DNA from: an uncultured Planctomycetia bacterium
GTDB lineage: Bacteria > Planctomycetota > Planctomycetia > Pirellulales > Thermoguttaceae
Length of the DNA stretch: 64,000 nt
Direction of reading: 5' to 3'
Assembly: GCA_963775975.1 (NCBI GenBank)
Contig: CAVZKX010000002.1
Span: 2,996,502-3,060,501 of the forward strand
Below are positions 3,090-62,461 of this stretch, one piece after another. Position numbers and translations under genes: made by a program. The stretch's first letter is position 1. Every line of letters starts with the position of its first letter. The notes beneath the pieces are model-generated. The model was not told where the DNA came from. It was given only the letters and a program-made list of their open reading frames with translations, and did not search any database.

Positions 3090-3529
3090 GCATTGAAAGC
3101 CGAATCCAGAAGTTAGAGGCGGTCGTATCATCCCGCGCCGCGGCGTTTGGAGGGCTTCCGCCCGTGTCACTCTGGCAAGGTGTGGTGTGCGTCGATGATG
3201 AGGCGAATCATATCGACTTTTTGGGCGAACGCTCACACTACACCGGCGCCTTGCCGTATTACCGCGGGGAAGTGGTGACTGAAGACGGACGGCTAAGGGC
3301 GCGTGAAGCCGATGACCCTGAAGACGCGCCGATCTTCGCGCCTGAAGTCCAAGCCCGGTTGAACGCGGAGTATGAGCAGCGGTACTTCACCCACCCTGAC
3401 ACGCCAGATAACCGCACGTGGTATCGAAAGATCGGGTGGGGGTTCTTGTTTGGGGATGAAGAGAGAAGCCCGGCGCGGCGGATGCCGAATCCTATGGTCG
3501 GGCGCGACTGTCCGAAAGATTCCGAGTAA
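3086..3529 (+). CDS. hypothetical protein (element-borne)
   Basis: 147-aa ORF coupled to the previous gene. No recognisable motif. Confidence 0.5.
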   Translation: MSIESRIQKLEAVVSSRAAAFGGLPPVSLWQGVVCVDDEANHIDFLGERSHYTGALPYYRGEVVTEDGRLRAREADDPEDAPIFAPEVQARLNAEYEQRYFTHPDTPDNRTWYRKIGWGFLFGDEERSPARRMPNPMVGRDCPKDSE

Positions 3530-3773
3530 CAGTACCCGAATCGGTACTTTTCCCCTCTTGAAACTTGGGGCGAAAAGGCGAATAATGGAAGTATCAAAAG
3601 TCAGTCTGCCGACTTGTGGCGGACAACAAAGTAAGGTTCTCTCCCATGTTCGATTCTGAGAACACTAGGCAACCCCCTTCCGGCCCGTGGCGAGTGGCAA
3701 CACCGTCCGCGCGGTCTTACTTCCGCGTTGATAGGACCGGGAGGGGCTTGCCCTTTCATGGGAGTTATCGAAC

Positions 3774-5129
3774 ATGCCAAAAATTCACGTGCATGTGGTA
3801 GCGTACCGGGATTGCAAGAACCTCGTCTTGCGGTACATCGACCCGGCGACACGCAAGCCCATTAGGGCGACGAAGTACAAAGACCCGCAGACCAGCGAAG
3901 TATTCGAGACAGGGCAGAATCGCAAGTATGCCCGTAAGCTGGCCGCGCGGTGGGAAGCTGATCTAAATGCCGGCAGGGACCAAGGCCGGTACGCGGCGAC
4001 GTGGGAGCAATTCCGCGAGCGGTACGAAGATGAGGTCGTACCGTCATTGAAAGACAGGACCGGAAATAAGATCGGCACCACGTTCAACCTTATGGAGAAG
4101 ATTCTACCGATGGTTGCGGTGGGGAAGTTGTCTGAGTTGAACGCGGAAACTCTATCTCAATTCCAGCAAGCCTTACGAGCCGGCGGCCGCGCCGAATCGA
4201 CCATCGCGGGCTACCTGGCGCACCTAAAGGCCGCGCTGAATTGGGCGGTTGAAGTGGAGTTGCTTTCCACACGCCCGGCGATTCGGAAACCGCCGAAGAG
4301 CGCCAAGAAGGGCGGCCGGAAGATGAAGGGGCGGCCCGTCACCGGAGAAGAATTCGACCGGATGCTTGCGGCCGTGCCCGCGGCCCTGGCGGAGTGGCGA
4401 CGGCGACGGCGGAACATGGCGCGAGCGGCGGCACGCAAGAAGGGACTCGCGGAACACAAGACGCAAACCGACTCCATCCCCGTGGAAATCGACCCGGCGG
4501 CCGTCGAATCGTGGCGGCACTATCTGCGGGGCTTGTGGCTGTCAGGGTTGCGGTTGGAAGAGTCCCTAAACCTCTATTGGGACCGCGACGATCGACCCCG
4601 CGTTGATTTGAGCGCGGAGCTACCCTTACTGGCAATTCCCGCAGAGTGGCAAAAGGCAGGCCGTGACACGCTCACGACCGTTACACCGGACTTCGCAAAG
4701 TTCCTTTTGCAGACCGCAGCGGACCAGCGGCGCGGCCCCGTGTTCCGGCCAATCATGCCCGGCGGCGTGGCCCGATACGACCAAGCCGGCAAGATGGTCA
4801 GTTTGATAGGCGAACTGGCCGGCGTGAAAGTCTACACTCACCCCAAGACGGGAAAAGTGAAGTATGCCAGCGCTCACGACCTGCGGCGCTCGTTTGGCAC
4901 ACGATGGTCAAGGGTGGTCAGTGCATCCGAGCTTCAAGACATGATGCGCCATGCCGACTATCACACGACGCAGAGTTACTACGTTGACCATCAGGCCGCA
5001 GACCTTGCCCGGAGTATCTACCGCAAGGCCGGCGTCGATCTAGGTACTGTTTTAGGTACTGTTGGGGCTTGTGACGATGATTCGGACGGCGCGGCGATCG
5101 TCGCAAAGTCCAATGGTTTCAACGGTTAA
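3774..5129 (+). CDS. tyrosine-type site-specific integrase
   Basis: 451-aa ORF. C-terminal catalytic signature GLRLEE, HDLRRSF (H-x-x-R) and HADYHTTQSYY (Tyr). Ends 6 nt from a tRNA 3' end. Confidence 0.9.
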   Translation: MPKIHVHVVAYRDCKNLVLRYIDPATRKPIRATKYKDPQTSEVFETGQNRKYARKLAARWEADLNAGRDQGRYAATWEQFRERYEDEVVPSLKDRTGNKIGTTFNLMEKILPMVAVGKLSELNAETLSQFQQALRAGGRAESTIAGYLAHLKAALNWAVEVELLSTRPAIRKPPKSAKKGGRKMKGRPVTGEEFDRMLAAVPAALAEWRRRRRNMARAAARKKGLAEHKTQTDSIPVEIDPAAVESWRHYLRGLWLSGLRLEESLNLYWDRDDRPRVDLSAELPLLAIPAEWQKAGRDTLTTVTPDFAKFLLQTAADQRRGPVFRPIMPGGVARYDQAGKMVSLIGELAGVKVYTHPKTGKVKYASAHDLRRSFGTRWSRVVSASELQDMMRHADYHTTQSYYVDHQAADLARSIYRKAGVDLGTVLGTVGACDDDSDGAAIVAKSNGFNG

Positions 5130-5135
5130 CGACAG

Positions 5136-5208
5136 TACCCCCGGCAGGATTCGAACCTGCGACCAATGGATTAGAAATCCATTGCTCTATCCCCTGAGCT
5201 ACGGGGGC
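5136..5208 (-). tRNA. tRNA-Arg (anticodon TCT)
   Basis: Folded by hand as a 73-nt cloverleaf: acceptor GCCCCCG/CGGGGGT, D arm GCTC..GAGC, anticodon arm ATGGA-TTTCTAA-TCCAT, T arm GCAGG-TTCGAAT-CCTGC. CCA is not encoded. Confidence 0.9.
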
Positions 5209-5647: not shown

Positions 5648-5731
5648 GTACGTCCTTTCTGCCGGAAAGGACGATTGCGGCGTCGCTCAATAGTTGGCGC
5701 ACATTAGTCCCTTCCGGCAGAAGGGACCTAC
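5648..5731. repeat. Pair of inverted REP-like hairpins (GTACGTCCTTTCTGCCGGAAAGGAC / GTCCCTTCCGGCAGAAGGGACCTAC)
   Basis: Two self-complementary 25-mers in opposite orientation at 5648-5672 and 5707-5731. A third copy lies inside mutL at 9916-9941. Confidence 0.8.
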
Positions 5732-8419: not shown

Positions 8420-8540
8420 GGAATTAGGGATTAGGGATTGGAAAAACGCTGACAAGACGGTGGTTTACATGTATATACGTCGCCATTAAATCGGAACCCA
8501 CAACCCCTAATCCCCAATCCCTAATTCCTAATCCCTCCCC
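8420..8540. repeat. GGGATT-type low-complexity inverted repeat flanking the four-helix-bundle gene
   Basis: GGAATTAGGGATTAGGGATTGG (8420-8441) and its approximate complement CCCCTAATCCCCAATCCCTAATTCCTAATCCCTCCCC (8504-8540). A related block GGGATTAGTGATTGGGGATTGGAGGG lies at 8010-8035. Confidence 0.8.
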
Positions 8541-12510: not shown

Positions 12511-12516
12511 AAGGTA

Positions 12517-12686
12517 GGACTTTGGTCTTGGGGCTTAGGTCTTGGGAGTTTTCCCAAGACCCAAGACCCAAGACCCAAGACCAAAGACCTAAGACCTAAG
12601 ACCTAAGACCTAAGACCAAAGACCAAAGACCAAAGACCAAAGACCAAAGACCAAAGACCTAAGACCTAAGACCTAAGACCTAAGCT
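12517..12686. repeat. Heptamer tandem array (19 x CNAAGAC) preceded by four inverted units
   Basis: Phase verified unit by unit from 12554: CCAAGAC x4, CAAAGAC x1, CTAAGAC x4, CAAAGAC x6, CTAAGAC x3, CTAAGCT x1. Inverted units at 12517-12546. Confidence 0.95.
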
Positions 12687-19939: not shown

Positions 19940-19998
19940 GTAGGATGGACCTCCGAGTCCGTCCAGTCTTCGAGGACGGACTCGGAGGTCCATCCTAC
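19940..19998. repeat. REP-like perfect palindrome (GTAGGATGGACCTCCGAGTCCGTCC / loop / complement)
   Basis: 25-nt perfect arms and a 9-nt loop, between convergent genes. Confidence 0.9.
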
Positions 19999-23703: not shown

Positions 23704-26004
23704 ATGCTGGAGCCTGCTGCTGTGAAAACTGCCAGCTTCGTGTTAATCCTGGCTATAACCTCCTCCGCAATCGCCCAGCCTCCGGCCATGTTCGATACTG
23801 AAGCCATCGACGCCAAAGTGGGCGCCCTGTTGAAGCGGATGACGCTCGCCGAAAAGCTCGGCCAGTTGACGCAGTTCTCCAACGGCGCGGCCACCGGGCC
23901 GGGCGGCGCGAAAGTCGATCAAAAAGAACTCGCCGCGCGAGGAGGACTCGGTTCGGTCCTCAATCTCACCGGCGCGCGCGAATGCAATGAGCTGCAGCGG
24001 CAGGCCGTGGAAAAATCGCGGCTGAAGATTCCGATCCTCTTCGGCCTCGATGTGATCCACGGGCACCGCACGGTCTACCCGATCCCGCTGGGTCTCTCCG
24101 CCGCATGGGACGCCGAACTTGCCGAGCGCTGTGCCCGCATGGCCGCCGAGGAGGCGACCGCCGACGGCATTCGTTGGACGTTCTCGCCGATGGTCGATAT
24201 CGCCCGCGACGCCCGCTGGGGCCGCATCGCCGAAGGCAGCGGCGAGGACCCGTTCCTCGGCTCGGTGATGGCGGCTGCCTGGGTCCGTGGATATCAAGGA
24301 AAGGACCTGTCTAATGCAACGGCGATGCTCGCTTGCGCCAAGCATTATGTCGCCTACGGCGCGCCGGAGGGCGGACGCGATTACAACACGGTCGACGTCT
24401 CCGAGCGCGTCTTGCGCGACGTTTATCTCCCGCCCTTCAAGGCGGCCAAGGATGCCGGTGCGGGCACGTTCATGGCGGCGTTCAACTCGTTGCAAGGAGT
24501 GCCGGCATCGGCAAACCATCATACGCTGACCGACATCCTGCGAACCGAATGGGGGTTCAAGGGCTTCGTCGTGAGCGATTGGGACTCGATCGGTGAGCTC
24601 GTGCAGCACGGCGTGGCGCTCGATGGCAGCGAGGCGGCGCTGAAAGCGATTACCGCCGGAGTCGATATGGATATGCAGAGCGGTCTATATGACTCGGTGC
24701 TGCCGGAGTTGTTGCAGAGCGGACGGTTGAAGAGCGAGGTGATCGATCGGGCAGTCGAGCGCGTGCTGCGAATCAAGTTTGCGCTTGGGCTGTTTGAAAC
24801 GCCATATACGGACGAAAAGCGGAGTGACACGCAAGCTATCAAGTCAAAACATCGAGAACTCGCCCGGCGGGCGGCGGAAGAATCATTTGTGCTGCTGAAG
24901 AACGATAATGTATCCGGCACACTCCGTGTGCCGCCTGCGAACGGCACACGGAGTGTGCCGGATACATTTCTTCTGCCGTTGCCAGCGAACAAGAGAATTG
25001 CCCTCATCGGCCCGCTGGCCGACGATCACGCGGGCATGTTAGGCGCGTGGGTGATGAAGGCCGATCCGAAGCTCGTCGTGACCTTGCGGGAATCGCTCGC
25101 CGAGCGGATTGGCGATCGACTTATGTATGCAAAAGGCGCCGAAACGCGCGGCGACTCCGAAGCCGGCTTTGCCGAAGCACTTGCCGCGGCACGGGAAGCC
25201 GACATTGTGCTAATGGCCTTGGGCGAAGCACCCGACATGAGCGGCGAGGCCGAATCGCGGGCCCACTTGGACCTGCCTGGCGTGCAGCTCAAGCTGCTCA
25301 AGGCGGTCGTCGCGACGGGCAAGCCGGTCGTGCTCGTTCTGTTTAGCGGGCGGCCGCTTGCAATTCCCTGGGAGGCCGAGCATGTGCCGGCGATCATCGC
25401 GGCCTGGTTCCCCGGCGTGCAAGCCGGGCCGGCGCTCGTGCGCACGCTTTACGGCGACGTGAATCCATCGGGCAAGCTCACCGCGACCTTTCCACGGAGT
25501 GTGGGCCAGGAACCTTTGTATTACAACTGCTTCAACACGGGCCGTCCCGCGCCGGGCAGCGACCACTACGTGACCGGCTACATCGACGAGCGGAATACGC
25601 CCCTCTTTCCTTTCGGCTGGGGGCTGTCGTACACGAAATTCGACTACTCGCCGACGTCGATAACATCGCCGGCGACGAGTGCCACGGACATAAACCGCGA
25701 CGGGGCGATAACGGTCGAAGCGACCGTCACGAACACCGGCCCGCGGGACGGTATGGAGGTCGTGCAGCTCTACATCCGCCAGCGCGGCACGAGCGTCGTC
25801 CGGCCGGTTCGCGAGCTAAAAGGTTTCCAGAAAATCATGCTCGCGGCCGGCGAGTCCCGGATGATCAAGTTCACACTTACAAAGAAGGAGCTTGCCTTCT
25901 GGAATATTGACTTGCAGCACGTTGTCGAGCCGGGCGAGTTGACCGTATGGGTCGCGCCCAATTGCCAGAGTGGCCAGCCGGTGAAGGTCCTGATCGGGCG
26001 GTAA
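23704..26004 (+). CDS. bglX: glycoside hydrolase family 3 beta-glucosidase (BglX-type)
   Basis: LTLAEKLGQL, GRIAEGSGEDP, GFVVSDW (nucleophile Asp), C-terminal FnIII-like domain. Carries a 60-nt palindrome in frame. Confidence 0.92.
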   Translation: MLEPAAVKTASFVLILAITSSAIAQPPAMFDTEAIDAKVGALLKRMTLAEKLGQLTQFSNGAATGPGGAKVDQKELAARGGLGSVLNLTGARECNELQRQAVEKSRLKIPILFGLDVIHGHRTVYPIPLGLSAAWDAELAERCARMAAEEATADGIRWTFSPMVDIARDARWGRIAEGSGEDPFLGSVMAAAWVRGYQGKDLSNATAMLACAKHYVAYGAPEGGRDYNTVDVSERVLRDVYLPPFKAAKDAGAGTFMAAFNSLQGVPASANHHTLTDILRTEWGFKGFVVSDWDSIGELVQHGVALDGSEAALKAITAGVDMDMQSGLYDSVLPELLQSGRLKSEVIDRAVERVLRIKFALGLFETPYTDEKRSDTQAIKSKHRELARRAAEESFVLLKNDNVSGTLRVPPANGTRSVPDTFLLPLPANKRIALIGPLADDHAGMLGAWVMKADPKLVVTLRESLAERIGDRLMYAKGAETRGDSEAGFAEALAAAREADIVLMALGEAPDMSGEAESRAHLDLPGVQLKLLKAVVATGKPVVLVLFSGRPLAIPWEAEHVPAIIAAWFPGVQAGPALVRTLYGDVNPSGKLTATFPRSVGQEPLYYNCFNTGRPAPGSDHYVTGYIDERNTPLFPFGWGLSYTKFDYSPTSITSPATSATDINRDGAITVEATVTNTGPRDGMEVVQLYIRQRGTSVVRPVRELKGFQKIMLAAGESRMIKFTLTKKELAFWNIDLQHVVEPGELTVWVAPNCQSGQPVKVLIGR
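24908..24967. repeat. 60-nt palindromic element inside the bglX coding sequence
   Basis: ATGTATCCGGCACACTCCGTGTGCCG-CCTGCGAA-CGGCACACGGAGTGTGCCGGATACAT. A near-identical intergenic copy lies at 58516-58574. Confidence 0.9.
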
Positions 26005-26134
26005 TATTCGAAAAAAGAAGAGGACTGAGCCGGCGCCCGACGTAACGAACATCCGTGCCGTTATTCTTGCCCAAGATTGACCTGGTCCCAAGCGTCCGTG
26101 CTCGGGGGCGTCAATGGCTCAGTCCTCTCCGGTT

Positions 26135-26195
26135 GTAGGGAACGGACTCCGTGCCGTTCCGCGGACTCTGGAACGGCACGCAGACCGTTCCCTAC
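26135..26195. repeat. REP-like nested palindrome (GTAGGGAACGG...CCGTTCCCTAC)
   Basis: Outer arms GTAGGGAACGG/CCGTTCCCTAC and inner arms CGTGCCGTTCC/GGAACGGCACG, between convergent genes. Confidence 0.85.
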
Positions 26196-26208
26196 AGAAA
26201 CACTGCAA

Positions 26209-30545: not shown

Positions 30546-30726
30546 AGCCGCGGAGCGGCAAAAGAAAATAGCCAGGGCGCAAGCCCCTGGCGACGAAGAA
30601 CCACGATTCGGTAGCCCCGGAGGGGCGAAACTTGACTTACTGTCGCCGCTCCGCGGCTGTGGTATCCAATTCGACATATCCCAGGGGCTTGCGCCCCTGG
30701 CTATTGTCTATCGCCGCTCCGCGGCT
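30546..30726. repeat. Composite nested inverted-repeat element filling an intergenic region
   Basis: AGCCGCGGAGCGGC (30546) with complements GCCGCTCCGCGGCT at 30645 and 30713. CCAGGG..CCCCTGG hairpins at 30568-30591 and 30680-30704. Confidence 0.8.
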
Positions 30727-35075: not shown

Positions 35076-35140
35076 TCGAAGCCCGACGCGCAAGCGAGGC
35101 TTGGATGCGGCGCCGGCCTCGCTTGCGCGTCGGGCTTCGA
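35076..35140. repeat. REP-like palindrome, 25-nt perfect arms
   Basis: TCGAAGCCCGACGCGCAAGCGAGGC (35076-35100) and its exact complement (35116-35140). Confidence 0.9.
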
Positions 35141-44537: not shown

Positions 44538-45206
44538 TTCTGGAAGCTCGGACTTTTCGGCGCCCGGCCGGCTAGCGTGTATGAGAGGTAGCGGTGCCCA
44601 GCGTGATTGACGCCTCGCGAATACATTTACTTTAGCGGCAAAGACGGTCGAATTCCAGGCGGGGCGGCAAAAGCCATGATCGCGCGGCGTCGTGACTGTC
44701 GGATCGTTTAGCCCGGGGCCATCGGCGACGGCGATTCCCGCATTGTCTGTCGCCGATGGCTCCGGGTTAAACAATGCGCTGCATCAAGAAATACAGCCGG
44801 CCATCGTGGCAGATCCAAGCTCGCTGAACGCGGGTGTCGGCCCTGGGTAAACCGACACAAGGGAAGAGAATGCGTGTCTAAGCTAAGCTGATTATGACTG
44901 CACGATGGCCGGCTTGACCGTGTCAATTGAAAAGTATGCTAGGTTACTTTCCTTAGACGTGCTTGGTTTCTGTGCATTCATTGCCTCGCAGGTGGTCATG
45001 TTCTTGTGATTCTGTGCCTCAAACGATGATTTCATGTGGAACGCAAACGTCGTGCCGCTCCCGAATTTGAAGTCTTAGTCTAGCCGCCGTCCGCCTACGG
45101 AACATATACTGGCAAGGTTCATAACCGCTATGTGCTTCGAAAATGATTGCCGCGCATGTTAATATCACATACGGGCGGTTTGTAAAAACATTTACCGCGA
45201 CAACCG

Positions 45207-57256: not shown

Positions 57257-58516
57257 ATGCAGGTCACGTTTATCGCTTGTCCCTTCAAGACCTCCTACGG
57301 AGCGGCTTCAGAGGCCCTCAAAAAAGCCCTCGAAGCGAAGCTCGTTGAAAAGCAGCTTGGCTCGAACGTCGAGTGGGTGGCGTCCAATTGCGGCTGCGGC
57401 GACGACGTCGAGGTCAGCCGGCAATTCCAGATCCCCGGCTGCAAATACTTCGATGCGATCACGATTACCGACCATCCTTCGCGAAACCCTTGGAAGCTCA
57501 GGATCAAGCTTGCGGCGAGGAAGTTCTTCTACTACTTCCGCGCGCGGAAGTATCACGCCTTTTCCGCCGGAGCGGAAGTCGTGAACTTCCAGCAGACGTT
57601 GAACGCTTACGGATCGACCGTGCTCTTCCACTGGTTAACCCAACGATCGCCGGCCGCGCGGGTGGTCACGATCCACGAGTTGGACCGTCACCAGTTGGAA
57701 TGCCCCGAGAGCAATCAAGCATATAACAAGGCCGACGCGATCATCGTACAGCAAGGCGCCATGCGAGATCAGCTCATCGGCCTCGGCGTCGATCCAAACA
57801 GAATAGAAATTGTTCTTCACGGGTCCGACCTGCCGGTAATCGACGAGAATCGCCCGCGCGACGGAATCATGTATTACTGCGGCCACCATCCCTTCCGAGC
57901 CAAAGGGCTGGAGTCGGTTTTCCAGGCGATGGCGACGCTCAAAAAGCGTCTCGGCACGAAGGCTCCGAAACTGAAAGTACATGCGTATTTGAGCGGCGAA
58001 GACTTGACGACCTTGAAGGGCATGGCCGCCCAGGCCGGTTTGGCAGACGACGTTAAATGGCTCAACCAGCCTTCGACGGAGGAACTCGTTCGCGAGTATG
58101 GTTCATCGCTGCTGTGCGTGCTGCCCTTCACGGGCAGTTTCGCCGGCCTGGCCGCGGCCACTGCGGCCGCCGTGGGACTGCCGATCATCGCCACGAAGCA
58201 CGCGGGAATTATCGAACACATCGGCGAAAATGGAATCTGGCTAGATAGCGACACGGCCGAGGAAATCGCGGCCCAGATCGAACGGCTGCTCGGCGCCGAT
58301 GCGCTCCGCCGCGATCTGTCCAAGCGCTTGCGGCAGCACGCGGAGCAATGTTTAAGCTGGGATACTGTCGCCGAACGCACGCTTGCGGTCTACGAACGGG
58401 CGATCGCGCGGAAAATGGGACAAAAGTGCTGTCGCAACTCGCAGGCAAACGCGCGGTTAACGGCCGACGACGCCGAAATGTGCGAAGAAACGTGCGGTTG
58501 CGCGGTCGCGGATTGA
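57257..58516 (+). CDS. glycosyltransferase (GT-B fold, family 4-like)
   Basis: C-terminal GLPIIATKHAGIIEHIGENGIWLD (E-x7-E-like region). Confidence 0.8.
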   Translation: MQVTFIACPFKTSYGAASEALKKALEAKLVEKQLGSNVEWVASNCGCGDDVEVSRQFQIPGCKYFDAITITDHPSRNPWKLRIKLAARKFFYYFRARKYHAFSAGAEVVNFQQTLNAYGSTVLFHWLTQRSPAARVVTIHELDRHQLECPESNQAYNKADAIIVQQGAMRDQLIGLGVDPNRIEIVLHGSDLPVIDENRPRDGIMYYCGHHPFRAKGLESVFQAMATLKKRLGTKAPKLKVHAYLSGEDLTTLKGMAAQAGLADDVKWLNQPSTEELVREYGSSLLCVLPFTGSFAGLAAATAAAVGLPIIATKHAGIIEHIGENGIWLDSDTAEEIAAQIERLLGADALRRDLSKRLRQHAEQCLSWDTVAERTLAVYERAIARKMGQKCCRNSQANARLTADDAEMCEETCGCAVAD

Positions 58517-58574
58517 ATGTATCAGGCACACTCCGCGTGCCGTCTTTCCGCACACGGAGTGTGCGGGATACATT
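58516..58574. repeat. Palindromic element, intergenic twin of the bglX insertion
   Basis: AATGTATCAGGCACACTCCGCGTGCCG-TCTTTC-CGCACACGGAGTGTGCGGGATACATT, between convergent genes. Confidence 0.9.
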
Positions 58575-58638
58575 CCTTTACAAGCGCTCCGCGGCTTCGA
58601 GCACGATCCGCTCCGTGGTTGCCCAGTCGATGCAGGCG

Positions 58639-59752: not shown

Positions 59753-61216
59753 ATGTGCCGCAGCGCCGGAAAGCTCTTGGCCGTGGTCTTGGCAGCCGCC
59801 GCGCTTGCGCCGGCATGCTGCGCGGCACAGAACGCCTATTCGCCGGTCAACGGGCAAGCACTTGGACCGAGCCGAGCGATGTTGGAACTCGCGCCGGACG
59901 CGGGCAACCAAAGCGCGCTGAGGCCGTCCGGCCCGATTTTTCCAGCTCCCGCGCCCGATGAGATCAAATCGCTAACCGTGCCGCAAATTGACGGGCCGGA
60001 GTCCTTGGATGACGCCTGGCGAATCGCGCTTTCGATCGACCAGCGCGTGGCGGCGGGCGACTTCAACGTGTCGGCGGCGGACCACGCGCTTTCCGCCGCT
60101 CGCGCCGAGCAGTTTCCCTCCCTGAACTTAGGCGCGAATTACCTTGCTATGAGCGACCAGTTGGCGATCAAGGCCAACGTGCCGCCGCTGCCTGCGACCC
60201 AACTGCCGTTCTTCAACCGCGACAGCCTCGGTTTCAACGCCCTGGTCAGCCAGCCGATCTACACGTTTGGACGGATATCCAGCGGGATCGACGCGGCCGG
60301 CGCGGGCGTCGATGCCAACCAGGCTGACGCACAGCGCACGCGGCTGGACATCAAGATGAGCGTCGCCGAGGTCTATATCGCAGTCCTCCGCGCGATACGG
60401 GTCGTCGAGGTTGCCGGCAGCCGCGTGTCGAGCCTCGCGGCGCACGTCCGCGATGTGGACAACCGCTTCCGCAAGGGCGTGGCGTCGCGCAACGACCTAT
60501 TGGCTGTTGAAGTGGCGCTGGCCGACGCGCAGCAACAGGCTGTCCAGGCGCGAAATGCGCTGGCAATGCTGTGCGCGGCCTACAACCGCGCACTGCGGCG
60601 GCGACTGAACGAACCGGTCCGTCTTGTGGATCTGCCGGGCGAAGGCGGCGCGGGCGACGTGGACGAACTGACGAAGATAGCGTGCGCCTGCCGGCCGGAG
60701 CTCGCCGAGCTTTCCGCCCAGGCGCGGGCACTGCGCTGCCAGGCCGATGCGGAACGCGCCAAGCACGCGCCGCAAATCGGCGTGAGCGGCGGATACCTGT
60801 ATCAACAGGACCAATACGTCGATCCCAATGGTGTGGCCGGCGTGGCTCTCACCGCCCAATGGACCGCCTTTGATTCCGGCCGCAGCAGCGAGCAAGCCGC
60901 TGCGCTATGTCAGCGCAGCGAGGCCTTGCTCCGCACGCGGAACGACGCCGAATCGTCGATTGCCCTGGAGGTCCGGCAAAAGTGGCTGGAGGTCCAGACC
61001 GCACGCGATCGCCTCGACTTCGCCCGCAAGGCGACCGCGCAGGCCGACGAGAACATGCGAGTCGTCCGCGATCGCTATCTCCAGGGCCTGGCGACGAACA
61101 CCGAGGTGCTGGACGGCGAAACGCTCCGCGTCCAGGCGTATATGAACCTGTACAACAGCTATTATGAGTCAATCCTCGCCGGGCTACGGGTCCGCCGGGC
61201 GGTCGGAAATCTATAA
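59753..61216 (+). CDS. TolC-family outer-membrane efflux protein
   Basis: Start taken at MCRSAGKLLAVVLAAAALA. Two OEP-type repeats (..AEQFPSLNLGANY.., ..RYLQGLATNTEVLDGE..). Confidence 0.82.
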   Translation: MCRSAGKLLAVVLAAAALAPACCAAQNAYSPVNGQALGPSRAMLELAPDAGNQSALRPSGPIFPAPAPDEIKSLTVPQIDGPESLDDAWRIALSIDQRVAAGDFNVSAADHALSAARAEQFPSLNLGANYLAMSDQLAIKANVPPLPATQLPFFNRDSLGFNALVSQPIYTFGRISSGIDAAGAGVDANQADAQRTRLDIKMSVAEVYIAVLRAIRVVEVAGSRVSSLAAHVRDVDNRFRKGVASRNDLLAVEVALADAQQQAVQARNALAMLCAAYNRALRRRLNEPVRLVDLPGEGGAGDVDELTKIACACRPELAELSAQARALRCQADAERAKHAPQIGVSGGYLYQQDQYVDPNGVAGVALTAQWTAFDSGRSSEQAAALCQRSEALLRTRNDAESSIALEVRQKWLEVQTARDRLDFARKATAQADENMRVVRDRYLQGLATNTEVLDGETLRVQAYMNLYNSYYESILAGLRVRRAVGNL

Positions 61217-61218
61217 GC

Positions 61219-61271
61219 GTGGGGCAGGTTGCCAACCTGCCTGAACTCGGCAGATTGGCAATCTGCCCCAC
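61219..61271. repeat. 53-nt double-hairpin element, copy A
   Basis: GTGGGGCAGGTTGCCAACCTGCC-TGAACTC-GGCAGATTGGCAATCTGCCCCAC. Confidence 0.9.
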
Positions 61272-61273
61272 AG

Positions 61274-62461
61274 TTAACGCAGCGCCGCGAGCTGTTCCGC
61301 GCTGGGAAACTCCGTCACGCGGTAGCGTTCGGGATACATGTCTAACGGCGTCATCAACTCGCCGACGACCGATTCAACTTTCTCCCAGTCGGCCACGACC
61401 GGCGTCTCGCTTATAGTGCCGAGCACAATCTGCTCCGTGCGGGGCAACAGCGTCACGGCGCCATCGGCCCAGACGCAGAAGTTGATCCGCTTTCCGGTCT
61501 CCTTGTGTTGGGCAACGCTGAACGAGGCGACGAAGACGTCCTCGCCTCGCGACTCGTGCAGCTTGTCGAGAAGGTCTTTCTGCTCGGCGTAGTCCTGGCC
61601 TTGCGAGCGCAGCCAGAGGCCGTGCAATTCCTCGTAATGCGGATTGTCCATGTCCGGCAGCCAGCGGGTCCATTCGTCGCCGTCCAGCCGCAGCGCCGCG
61701 CCGGAGACCGTTCGCGGCTGGTCGAACGCCTTCTTCGCCAAGGCGATCATCGCTTCCAGCCCGGCGGTGTCTTCGGAGCCGGTAACGATCAGCATTTCGC
61801 GACCCGGCGCCATGGCGATGTAGTCGCCGTCCACCTCGAACTGCCGCACCAAATCCAAGAGCACCAGCCGCGACGAGTCGTAGCCGTCGTTCGTAGTGAA
61901 GACGTAAGTGCCCGGCCCTTCCTGCGGGCCGATGATCTGCGGCGGCACGTGCCGCAGATTCTCGCGGGCGGACTCCAGAGCTTCGTAGAACGTCACGCCC
62001 CACGATTCCAACTCGCGATTGGAAACCGGCTTCATCGAGTCGGGCATATCGTAGACCAGCCCGAGGCCCAGGTCGTCGCCGATCGTCTGATAGGGGAGAT
62101 ATGTGTCCTCCGCGCCGCCGAGTTGCATCCGCAGCCGCGCAGCCTCGAAAAAGCTTCGCGACCGCACTGCCGGCAAGATGTCCGGTTGAATGTCGTCATA
62201 CTCTTCCGGCGCCGGCTTGTTGGCCTGCAGCCAGCCGCGCACGAACCGCCGTACGGCTTGCTCGCGACTTTCCACCGCCAGCGAGCAATACTCGCGGTAG
62301 GCGTTGTTCAGAAAGAGGACCGATCCCTTCTCGCCCTCGACCTGCAACTGGAACTGTTCGGCGTCGTAATCGATCGGGTTGGTGACGCCGACCTCGCGCA
62401 GGCGGTCGATCACGAATTGGGCGAAGGCGTCTTGATCGCTGCTGACCTCGAAATCCGCCAT
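61274..62461 (-). CDS. hypothetical protein (395 aa), bracketed by inverted 53-nt elements
   Basis: Long ORF with coding-like composition. No motif recognised. Confidence 0.65.
   Translation of the reverse strand: MADFEVSSDQDAFAQFVIDRLREVGVTNPIDYDAEQFQLQVEGEKGSVLFLNNAYREYCSLAVESREQAVRRFVRGWLQANKPAPEEYDDIQPDILPAVRSRSFFEAARLRMQLGGAEDTYLPYQTIGDDLGLGLVYDMPDSMKPVSNRELESWGVTFYEALESARENLRHVPPQIIGPQEGPGTYVFTTNDGYDSSRLVLLDLVRQFEVDGDYIAMAPGREMLIVTGSEDTAGLEAMIALAKKAFDQPRTVSGAALRLDGDEWTRWLPDMDNPHYEELHGLWLRSQGQDYAEQKDLLDKLHESRGEDVFVASFSVAQHKETGKRINFCVWADGAVTLLPRTEQIVLGTISETPVVADWEKVESVVGELMTPLDMYPERYRVTEFPSAEQLAALR

Follow-up and report, generated by a model that had tools for sequence, protein, structure and literature searches.

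The window analysed here is a 64,000-nt stretch of a contig from an uncultured bacterium of the planctomycete family Thermoguttaceae. It carries an intact open reading frame (ORF) for a BglX-type beta-glucosidase of glycoside hydrolase family 3 (GH3), which matches the Pfam families Glyco_hydro_3 (7e-68), Glyco_hydro_3_C (4e-51) and Fn3-like (8e-25) and contains, in frame, a perfect 62-nt palindrome (Table 1). This palindrome is very probably a REPIN, a hairpin made from two inverted repetitive extragenic palindromes (REPs) of about 24 nt with a short spacer between them. It belongs to a family abundant in Thermoguttaceae and Pirellulales that is associated, in related genomes, with a REP-associated tyrosine transposase (RAYT), and would have landed in a turn of the GH3 enzyme, where it is tolerated as a probably translated loop.

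An inverted-repeat scan delimits two arms of 27 nt each (24907–24933 and 24942–24968) that are 100% complementary to each other and enclose a loop of 8 nt. A sequence-only reading of the same DNA had described a 60-nt perfect-arm palindrome at 24908–24967 in the GH3 gene. The palindrome is real and in frame, but its extent was underestimated by one base at either end. The hairpin is very stable, with a predicted RNA folding energy of −59.6 kcal/mol compared to −21.3 ± 3 kcal/mol for dinucleotide shuffles (z = −12.8), a value that none of the 200 shuffles equaled, and a DNA folding energy of −39.5 kcal/mol (z = −14). No Rfam family matches the element.

The window harbors two REPIN copies of this family. 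The same reading had pointed to a near-identical element in the intergenic gap at 58516–58574, which is indeed there and extragenic, but is slightly longer (Table 1) and more degenerate, with 26-nt arms that are 88% complementary. It abuts the TGA stop codon (58514–58516) of the ORF at 57257–58516, a typical location for an extragenic REP. The 17-nt core, GGCACACGGAGTGTGCC, has six matches in the window at up to three mismatches, where 0.18 would be expected.

Table 1. Coordinates of the GH3 gene, the REPIN and its parts, the second copy in the window and a transposase homologue at a related locus (L089).
Feature	Location	Strand	Description
GH3 (BglX-type) beta-glucosidase, host gene	23704..26004	+	766 aa, intact ORF; palindrome in frame
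Complete REP doublet (REPIN)	24907..24968	.	AAT-GTATCC...GGATAC-ATT; perfect palindrome within the GH3 gene
Left REP unit	24910..24933	+	Tag GTATCC (24910–24915), stem GGCACAC (24916–24922), loop TCC (24923–24925), stem GTGTGCC (24926–24932), G; translation VSGTLRVP
Spacer/loop	24934..24941	+	CCTGCGAA; variable part of the family, based on the loop catalogue of 85 copies
Right REP unit	24942..24968	-	Inverted copy of the left unit: C, GGCACAC-GGA-GTGTGCC, GGATAC, ATT; plus-strand translation (N)GTRSVPDT(F)
Second REPIN copy	58515..58575	.	GAATGTATCAGG...CGGGATACATTC; extragenic, more degenerate, same family
RAYT homologue	L089 6914-7570	-	215 aa; HUH motif VMPNHVHVL; catalytic-tyrosine motif RLYIADNP

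The peptide encoded by the insert, VSGTLRVPPANGTRSVPDTF, takes up residues 403–422 and contains neither a cysteine nor a stop. It is located between the strand VLLKN (residues 396–400) and the segment LLPL (423–426), where the Pfam GH3 C-terminal match (396–643) begins. The window GH3 has at least 8000 homologues at E ≤ 1e-50, of which 120 were aligned over the insertion site. Nearly all of these read VLLKN-D-x-V-(N/A)-G-K-P-LLPL, whereas the window reads VLLKN-D-N-VSGTLRVPPANGTRSVPDTF-LLPL. Twenty residues thus stand for a five-residue turn, so that the net gain is 15 residues (+45 nt) rather than 20. The earlier count of exactly 20 added codons therefore holds for what the insert encodes, but not for what the protein gained, since a VNGKP-type turn was replaced. 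Nor are BglX-type enzymes contiguous at this point, contrary to that reading: close orthologues carry V-(N/A)-G-K-P.

The insert peptide is missing from 117 of the 120 homologues, including the closest insert-free ones (P0002, P0003, P0004 and P0006, 80–88% identity), and the DNA of the empty site can be read in L103, a syntenic orthologue with about 80% identity, and in L104. To the right of the site, insert-free orthologues read CCGTTGCTG or CCGCTCCTG. Palindrome-free close orthologues with a homologous peptide at this position were not found. A distant homologue, the periplasmic beta-glucosidase of Bacteroides (PDB 5xxl, E = 9e-211), which is the closest solved structure, has a 12-aa loop of its own, NVTLRPGTPAEP, at residues ~380–395 of chain A, opposite window residues 400–426. 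HMMER pairs this loop with the REPIN peptide (V..TLR..P..GT....P). The likeness is judged to be superficial and probably a coincidence, because the DNA of the window is matched almost exactly by dozens of other copies.

The length of the GH3 loop at this site varies over the family from one to about 12 residues, the latter being that of 5xxl. In an AlphaFold2 model of the window GH3, with a mean predicted local distance difference test score (pLDDT) of 83.8 and a predicted template modeling score of 0.88, the strand at 396–400 has a pLDDT above 90, residues 403–422 are modeled as coil with a pLDDT of 62 falling to 48, and the values are high again from residue 421. The alignment and the predicted model, together with the conserved residues and the low dN/dS described below, support a tolerated, flexible loop, which would be translated, is probably exposed on the surface and may leave the activity of the enzyme intact. 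If so, the site marks a GH3 loop that tolerates an extension of 15 residues.

The window has a sister lineage in locus L001, whose GH3 protein (P0014) is 92% identical to that of the window. The upstream neighbor is likewise 92% identical, and the two loci are syntenic. L001 carries the insert with identical junctions, the left one reading AACAAT/GTATCC, and with only two differences in 60 nt, both of them synonymous. In both loci, GAAGAA (24897–24902 in the window) is complementary to TTCTTC (24968–24973), and the predicted hairpin runs on over a small bulge. The shared insert bears on the concern that the palindrome is an assembly or sequencing artefact, a fold-back chimera in the contig, as long-read errors can yield perfect palindromes. 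L001 is an independent assembly from another sample, and the insert with its two substitutions sits at the same site; moreover, the family is found in short-read SPAdes metagenome-assembled genomes (MAGs), in long-read MAGs and in Logan contigs. The probability of an artefact is accordingly negligible.

A third insert-bearing GH3 gene is that of locus L002 (P0005, 77–80% identical), which has a copy in the same loop with a different spacer, ACGCGAAG, and with different junctions that are two codons off. The insertion is thus not unique to the source genome, as the sequence-only reading had expected an orthologue alignment to confirm. In a neighbor-joining tree, the window and L001 are sisters nested among the insert-free P0002, P0003, P0004 and P0006, while the insert-bearing P0005 clusters with the insert-free P0007 and P0009. 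The parsimonious reading of this sequence tree is that there were two independent gains, one in the ancestor of the window and L001 and another in L002. Otherwise, a single gain and then four or more precise losses would be required.

Judged from the shared junctions, the insertion is older than the split between the window and L001, at a synonymous divergence (dS) of about 0.5. Since both carry the insert, the divergence between the two arose after the insertion. Over the 596 aligned codons outside the insert, dS is 0.50 and the nonsynonymous divergence (dN) is 0.046, giving a dN/dS ratio of 0.092. The insert-bearing GH3 gene has therefore been under strong purifying selection.

These values also bear on whether the insertion disabled the enzyme, leaving a decaying pseudogene or a protein with a changed function. 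A foreign 20-residue peptide within the Pfam GH3 C-terminal match might be expected to do so, and the GH3 gene of L001 is called as two ORFs, one of 622 aa and a 144-aa Fn3-like part (L001 10714-11148). However, the split lies far from the insert in a nanopore-derived contig and is most simply explained as an indel error. The window ORF is intact, and all of the family-invariant residues are present, including D292 (of the SDW motif) and E508/E515. Together with the low dN/dS over the codons that diverged after the insertion, this makes a loss of the enzyme most improbable.

Within the insert itself, the window and L001 differ by no nonsynonymous and two synonymous changes, and the proportion of synonymous differences (pS) is 0.11, compared to 0.365 in the rest of the gene. 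Among 60-nt windows along the gene, just 3.5% show two differences or fewer. The low synonymous change and the perfect palindrome hint that an additional constraint acts or that the arms convert each other at the DNA level, although the sample is small, at about 18 sites.

When metagenomes were scanned with the GH3 protein, the relatives recovered were at most 63% identical, and a search of public sequencing runs yielded weak matches in two soil metagenomes and no reads over the junctions. Numerous contigs of these two soil metagenomes align with the window solely from 24905–24907 to 24966–24968, with unrelated sequence on either side. The 62-nt unit is thereby delimited independently of the palindrome itself.

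The palindrome is a member of a large repeat family. A 19-nt arm pattern was found at 100 loci or more in GTDB species-representative genomes. Among the matches listed, the hosts are MAGs assigned to Thermoguttaceae, Pirellulales or “Planctomycetaceae”, except for a single short contig, probably mis-binned, from a Bifidobacteriaceae bin, and four MAGs gave 13–38 loci each. A relaxed search of the listed loci yielded at least 91 full copies, 85 of them non-redundant, in at least seven Thermoguttaceae/Pirellulales MAGs and with unrelated flanks. All 91 share a common layout: GTATCCGGCACACTCCGTGTGCCG, followed by a variable spacer of 5–12 nt and CGGCACACGGAGTGTGCCGGATAC, making a unit of 56–62 nt. 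Each arm is a stem-loop in its own right, consisting of the tag GTATCC and GGCACAC-TCC-GTGTGCC, with a 7-bp stem and a 3-nt loop, and the tags are on the outside. Copies occur in both orientations, as is shown by the asymmetric spacer, which reads either CCNNCCAA or the complement, TTGGNNGG. These MAGs also contain sister subfamilies with GTAG...CTAC tags (GTAGTC, GTAGCA and GTAGTA), which are likewise seen around RAYT genes.

The flanks of the 85 non-redundant copies prolong the palindrome by 3–4 bases beyond the tags, with the consensus CAAY/.../RTTG (slashes mark the element boundaries). Direct flanking repeats of at least 4 nt are absent from all 85.

When every ORF of the collected loci was searched by phmmer with E. 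coli RayT as query, a single borderline match emerged, in L089 (Table 1), which also matches the NCBIfam model NF047646, “REP-associated tyrosine transposase”, with E = 1.7e-14. This gene has GTATCC REPINs with identical spacers on both sides, about 10–60 nt away. The protein has 1411 homologues at E ≤ 1e-10, many of which have been named “REP element-mobilizing transposase RayT” by JGI, and some of which match PF01797. At all four loci examined (L089, L106, L107 and L108/L109), the RAYT is flanked on both sides by repeats of the superfamily, with GTATCC tags in L106, GTATGC in L107 and both GTAGTC and GTAGCA in L108/L109. By its gene order, a RAYT between repeats in these relatives is a REPtron arrangement. 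The element would thus be mobilized by a RAYT, the cognate enzyme being predicted from its relatives.

Two of these loci show further repeat structures. On the 5′ side of the RAYT homologue in L108 (2174–2491) and L109 (2206–2491) is a tandem array of 8–10 single 32-nt REPs (GACGGCACACGGCGTGTGCGGACTACGCCCGA) in one orientation, which is a REP cluster and not a set of doublets. In L106, the RAYT lies between two copies (883–2485 and 3493–5095) of a duplicated two-gene module with 82-aa and 435-aa ORFs. The L106 protein is called as 263 aa rather than ~215 aa, probably because the gene as annotated takes in, at its 5′ end, four tandem 21-nt partial REPs (CGGAATGTGCCGGATACATTG).

The association with RAYT genes also separates this family from classical MITEs (transposable elements of the miniature inverted-repeat type), decayed insertion sequences (ISs) with terminal inverted repeats that are moved by a target-duplicating DDE transposase. 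Like a MITE, the element is small, non-coding and multi-copy and has inverted ends, and the L002 copy is flanked by CCCAAG and TCCCAAG, which resemble a target duplication of 6–7 nt. However, the 85 copies show no such duplications, the element as a whole is a single hairpin, each arm of which forms a stem-loop of its own that carries a GTA(T/G) tag, and the sole gene that recurrently flanks it is the HUH/Y1 RAYT homologue, at four of four loci. In about 0.8 Mb of loci, neither a DDE transposase nor an IS with ends matching GTATCCGGCACAC was seen. Thus, IS-derived terminal inverted repeats and a target-site duplication, the features by which a MITE would be recognized, were not found, and a MITE origin is very unlikely.

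Most copies of the family are extragenic. Of the 91 sampled, about 10% lie in frame within genuine genes, with 6–10 copies in verified or plausible genes. Intragenic status was counted only where Pfam supports the host, as a codon-usage score could not tell sense ORFs from antisense ones in DNA this rich in G+C; ten further ORFs that span copies, mostly without a Pfam match, were left out of the count. Random insertion into a mostly coding genome would hit genes much more often than this, so that most genic insertions have presumably been purged by selection. In-frame copies within Pfam-matched domains are found in Lnt (CN_hydrolase), HypF (the Sua5/YrdC domain), a glutamate-synthase-like (GltB-like) protein and a ComF-type phosphoribosyltransferase, the last of which belongs to the GTAG subfamily. 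Others are in PGM-like and GH106 ORFs and in two probable membrane proteins without a Pfam match.

The reading frame of these copies is far from random. In nine of the ten credible intragenic events, the left arm is read as V-S/D-G/R-T-L/H-R-V (binomial p ~4e-4), and in eight of the ten, both arms are read in the cysteine-free frame VSGTLRVP...GTRSVPDT (p ~5e-5). The remaining two frames give Cys-rich peptides (YPAHSVCR and IRHTPCA). This frame bias indicates that selection filters the insertions by the peptide they encode, and the intragenic copies are probably translated, since they keep the frame and are biased to one of the frames. Translational bypass, splicing or RNA-level excision of the hairpin was considered and rejected, as it fails to explain either the kept frame or the bias. 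A separate observation concerns L078 (1465–7998, plus strand), where a frame stays open over 2178 codons or more; this putative giant ORF has no Pfam match and contains two in-frame REPINs (at 2757 and 4863) in Cys-containing frames.

A search of protein databases with the doubled insert peptide returned nine short “hypothetical proteins” of 32–70 aa (P0241–P0249) and no host proteins. These are gene-calling artefacts, translations of intergenic copies of the repeat. VSGTLRVP...GTRSVPDT segments, whether in unrelated proteins from planctomycete MAGs or in such spurious proteins, should be annotated as repeat-derived.

The frame bias also bears on the question of whether the hairpin was selected for a role as nucleic acid, either as an mRNA structure that causes ribosome pausing or affects transcript stability or attenuation, or as a DNA cruciform. 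Such a role would be consistent with the great stability of the hairpin, with a palindrome that is still perfect after a dS of ~0.5, with the low synonymous change in the insert and with its location at the start of the C-terminal GH3 match, and REPs elsewhere have been reported to act on mRNA stability and termination (PMC3733652). However, close orthologues do without the hairpin, intragenic copies in other hosts sit within domains and not at boundaries, and the bias to one frame points to selection on the peptide, and hence to translation. The terminator scan did not flag the hairpin, the synonymous signal comes from very few sites, and arm-to-arm gene conversion could equally keep the palindrome perfect. 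A nucleic-acid role is therefore considered unlikely.

A further idea is that this REPIN subfamily has become adapted to life in coding sequence and acts as a generator of loop-length variation in planctomycete proteins. The 62-nt unit is stop-free in all six frames, as are only 5.8% of composition-matched shuffled palindromes, whereas the GTAG-tagged palindromes in the window have two frames closed by stops. On this reading, the change from GTAG to GTAT removed the TAG stop in the tag. If this were true, the benign Gly/Ser/Thr/Pro/Arg-rich frame and a CAAY-type target preference would allow repeated entry into permissive protein loops, of which the two apparently independent insertions into one GH3 loop would be an example, and the palindrome might be actively maintained within genes, either through conversion between the arms or because the hairpin is selected. 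The idea is speculative and rather doubtful.

For the REPIN in the GH3 gene, the following course of events is proposed. The REPIN would have been put at a CAAY-like site after VLLKN(D/N)N, without target duplication, by a RAYT that acts in trans on hairpins of single-stranded DNA. Some 11–17 nt of the original turn would have been lost in the same event or soon after, giving a net change of +45 nt. The product would have survived because it was in frame, in a benign frame and in a loop of variable length, and would then have been inherited vertically since before the split between the window and L001. The apparently independent event in L002 suggests that the loop is a target hot spot, one of few permissive sites in the gene, or both.

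Several observations weigh against this picture. The L089 RAYT scores 54 bits against NF047646, below the curated cutoff of 80, and a Pfam search of the protein gave no match, Y1_Tnp included. No RAYT is present in the 64-kb window, and none of the 120 best of the 1411 homologues comes from the 4.29-Mb source contig. The tag of the window subfamily is GTAT, while the canonical tag is GTAG. The net change of +45 nt differs from the element length of 56–62 nt, so that a plain insertion is insufficient to explain the junctions, and the loss of ~11–17 nt of the turn has to be assumed. Finally, residues 403–422 are assigned to a loop from a part of the predicted structure where the confidence is low.

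REPINs and their RAYT transposases have been described by Bertels & Rainey 2011 (PMC3116915) and Bertels et al. 2017 (PMC5581495). The present family shares their hallmarks: stem-loops whose conserved 5′ tetranucleotide tag stays unpaired (here a one-base variant), arranged as inverted doublets, the replicating unit, that form one larger hairpin; a high copy number with mostly extragenic locations; a RAYT of the HUH/Y1 type flanked on both sides by repeats (here in relatives); and no target-site duplication. It differs from the known REPINs in its hosts, which are Planctomycetota (Thermoguttaceae) rather than Gammaproteobacteria, in its GTAT(CC) tag, in the shortness of its inter-REP spacer and in the share of sampled copies that are in frame in genes. 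The RAYT differs from known ones in its size of ~215 aa and its distant match to the curated model. The REPIN/RAYT picture, which comes mainly from Gammaproteobacteria, is thereby extended to soil and peat Thermoguttaceae.

REPs with GTAG or CGTC tags were already known from eight phyla, the PVC group among them (Di Nocera, De Gregorio & Rocco 2013, PMC3733652). The same study described head-to-head REP dimers 1–2 bp apart in Opitutus terrae, intragenic dimers or grouped repeats that encode 20–30 amino acids in ORFs of known proteins, and REPs at about one site in recB of two Xanthomonas species. The recB case parallels the repeated insertion into GH3. Compared to those intragenic dimers, the element in GH3 belongs to another sequence family and another host clade, and its host gene encodes a glycoside hydrolase.

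Rickettsia palindromic elements (RPEs) are likewise found in frame in many unrelated genes, where they are presumed to be harmless to function (Ogata et al. 2000/2002, cited in PMC3733652 and PMC10969869), and RPE-4 and RPE-6 were classed as CGTC-type by Di Nocera et al. (PMC3733652). Their likeness to the element in GH3 is functional only, both being in-frame coding palindromes. RPE-1 is 100–150 bp in length and AT-rich, and is not known to have a RAYT partner. RPEs differ from the present element in size (62 nt here), G+C content and host phylum. Bacterial MITEs such as Correia/NEMIS, ERIC and RUP are also short, non-autonomous and hairpin-forming and lie in or beside genes (reviewed in PMC10969869). 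However, MITEs have IS-derived terminal repeats and target-site duplications, in contrast to the GH3 element, for which no target duplication and no matching IS were seen.

Since REP dimers and RPEs had already been described inside genes, intragenic palindromes as such are a known kind. New within the literature searched are the GTAT-tagged family, its Thermoguttaceae hosts with RAYT homologues, a dated insertion with purifying selection and a quantified frame bias. The sequence-only reading had proposed a mobile hairpin element that was inserted into coding sequence and is accepted there as a surface loop. That proposal is borne out by the repeat family, by the homologues that lack the peptide, by the predicted coil and by the low dN/dS, with surface exposure remaining the probable part. 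The GH3 gene is an unusually clean case, in that the insertion can be ordered relative to speciation, is followed by strong purifying selection and is matched by an apparently independent insertion into that loop of an orthologue.

The window contains at least six further hairpin palindromes of 60–85 nt that belong to other families, at 19940–19998, 26134–26196, 35076–35140, 61214–61276, 5648–5731 and 44700–44778. GTAG...CTAC tags are clear in those at 19940 (GTAGGATGGACC...) and 26134 (TGTAGGGAACGG..., just 3′ of the GH3 stop codon), and the palindrome types at 26134, 35076 and 5648 were found again in related MAG loci. Because these palindromes are of different families, the source genome seems to be host to several REPIN-like families.

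Other repeats in the window are of a different nature. At 12515–12684 are 18 tandem AAGACCT heptamers (96% matches), preceded by an inverted block of complementary heptamers, which together make long imperfect inverted repeats. Short arrays of GGGATTA and CCCTAAT heptamers (telomere-like, TTAGGG-type) occur at 8420–8536, inverted and about 70 nt apart. A match to Rfam's Acido-Lenti-1 small RNA is located at 30681–30726 on the plus strand (48.9 bits, gathering score 37), and a tRNA gene at 5136–5208 on the minus strand.

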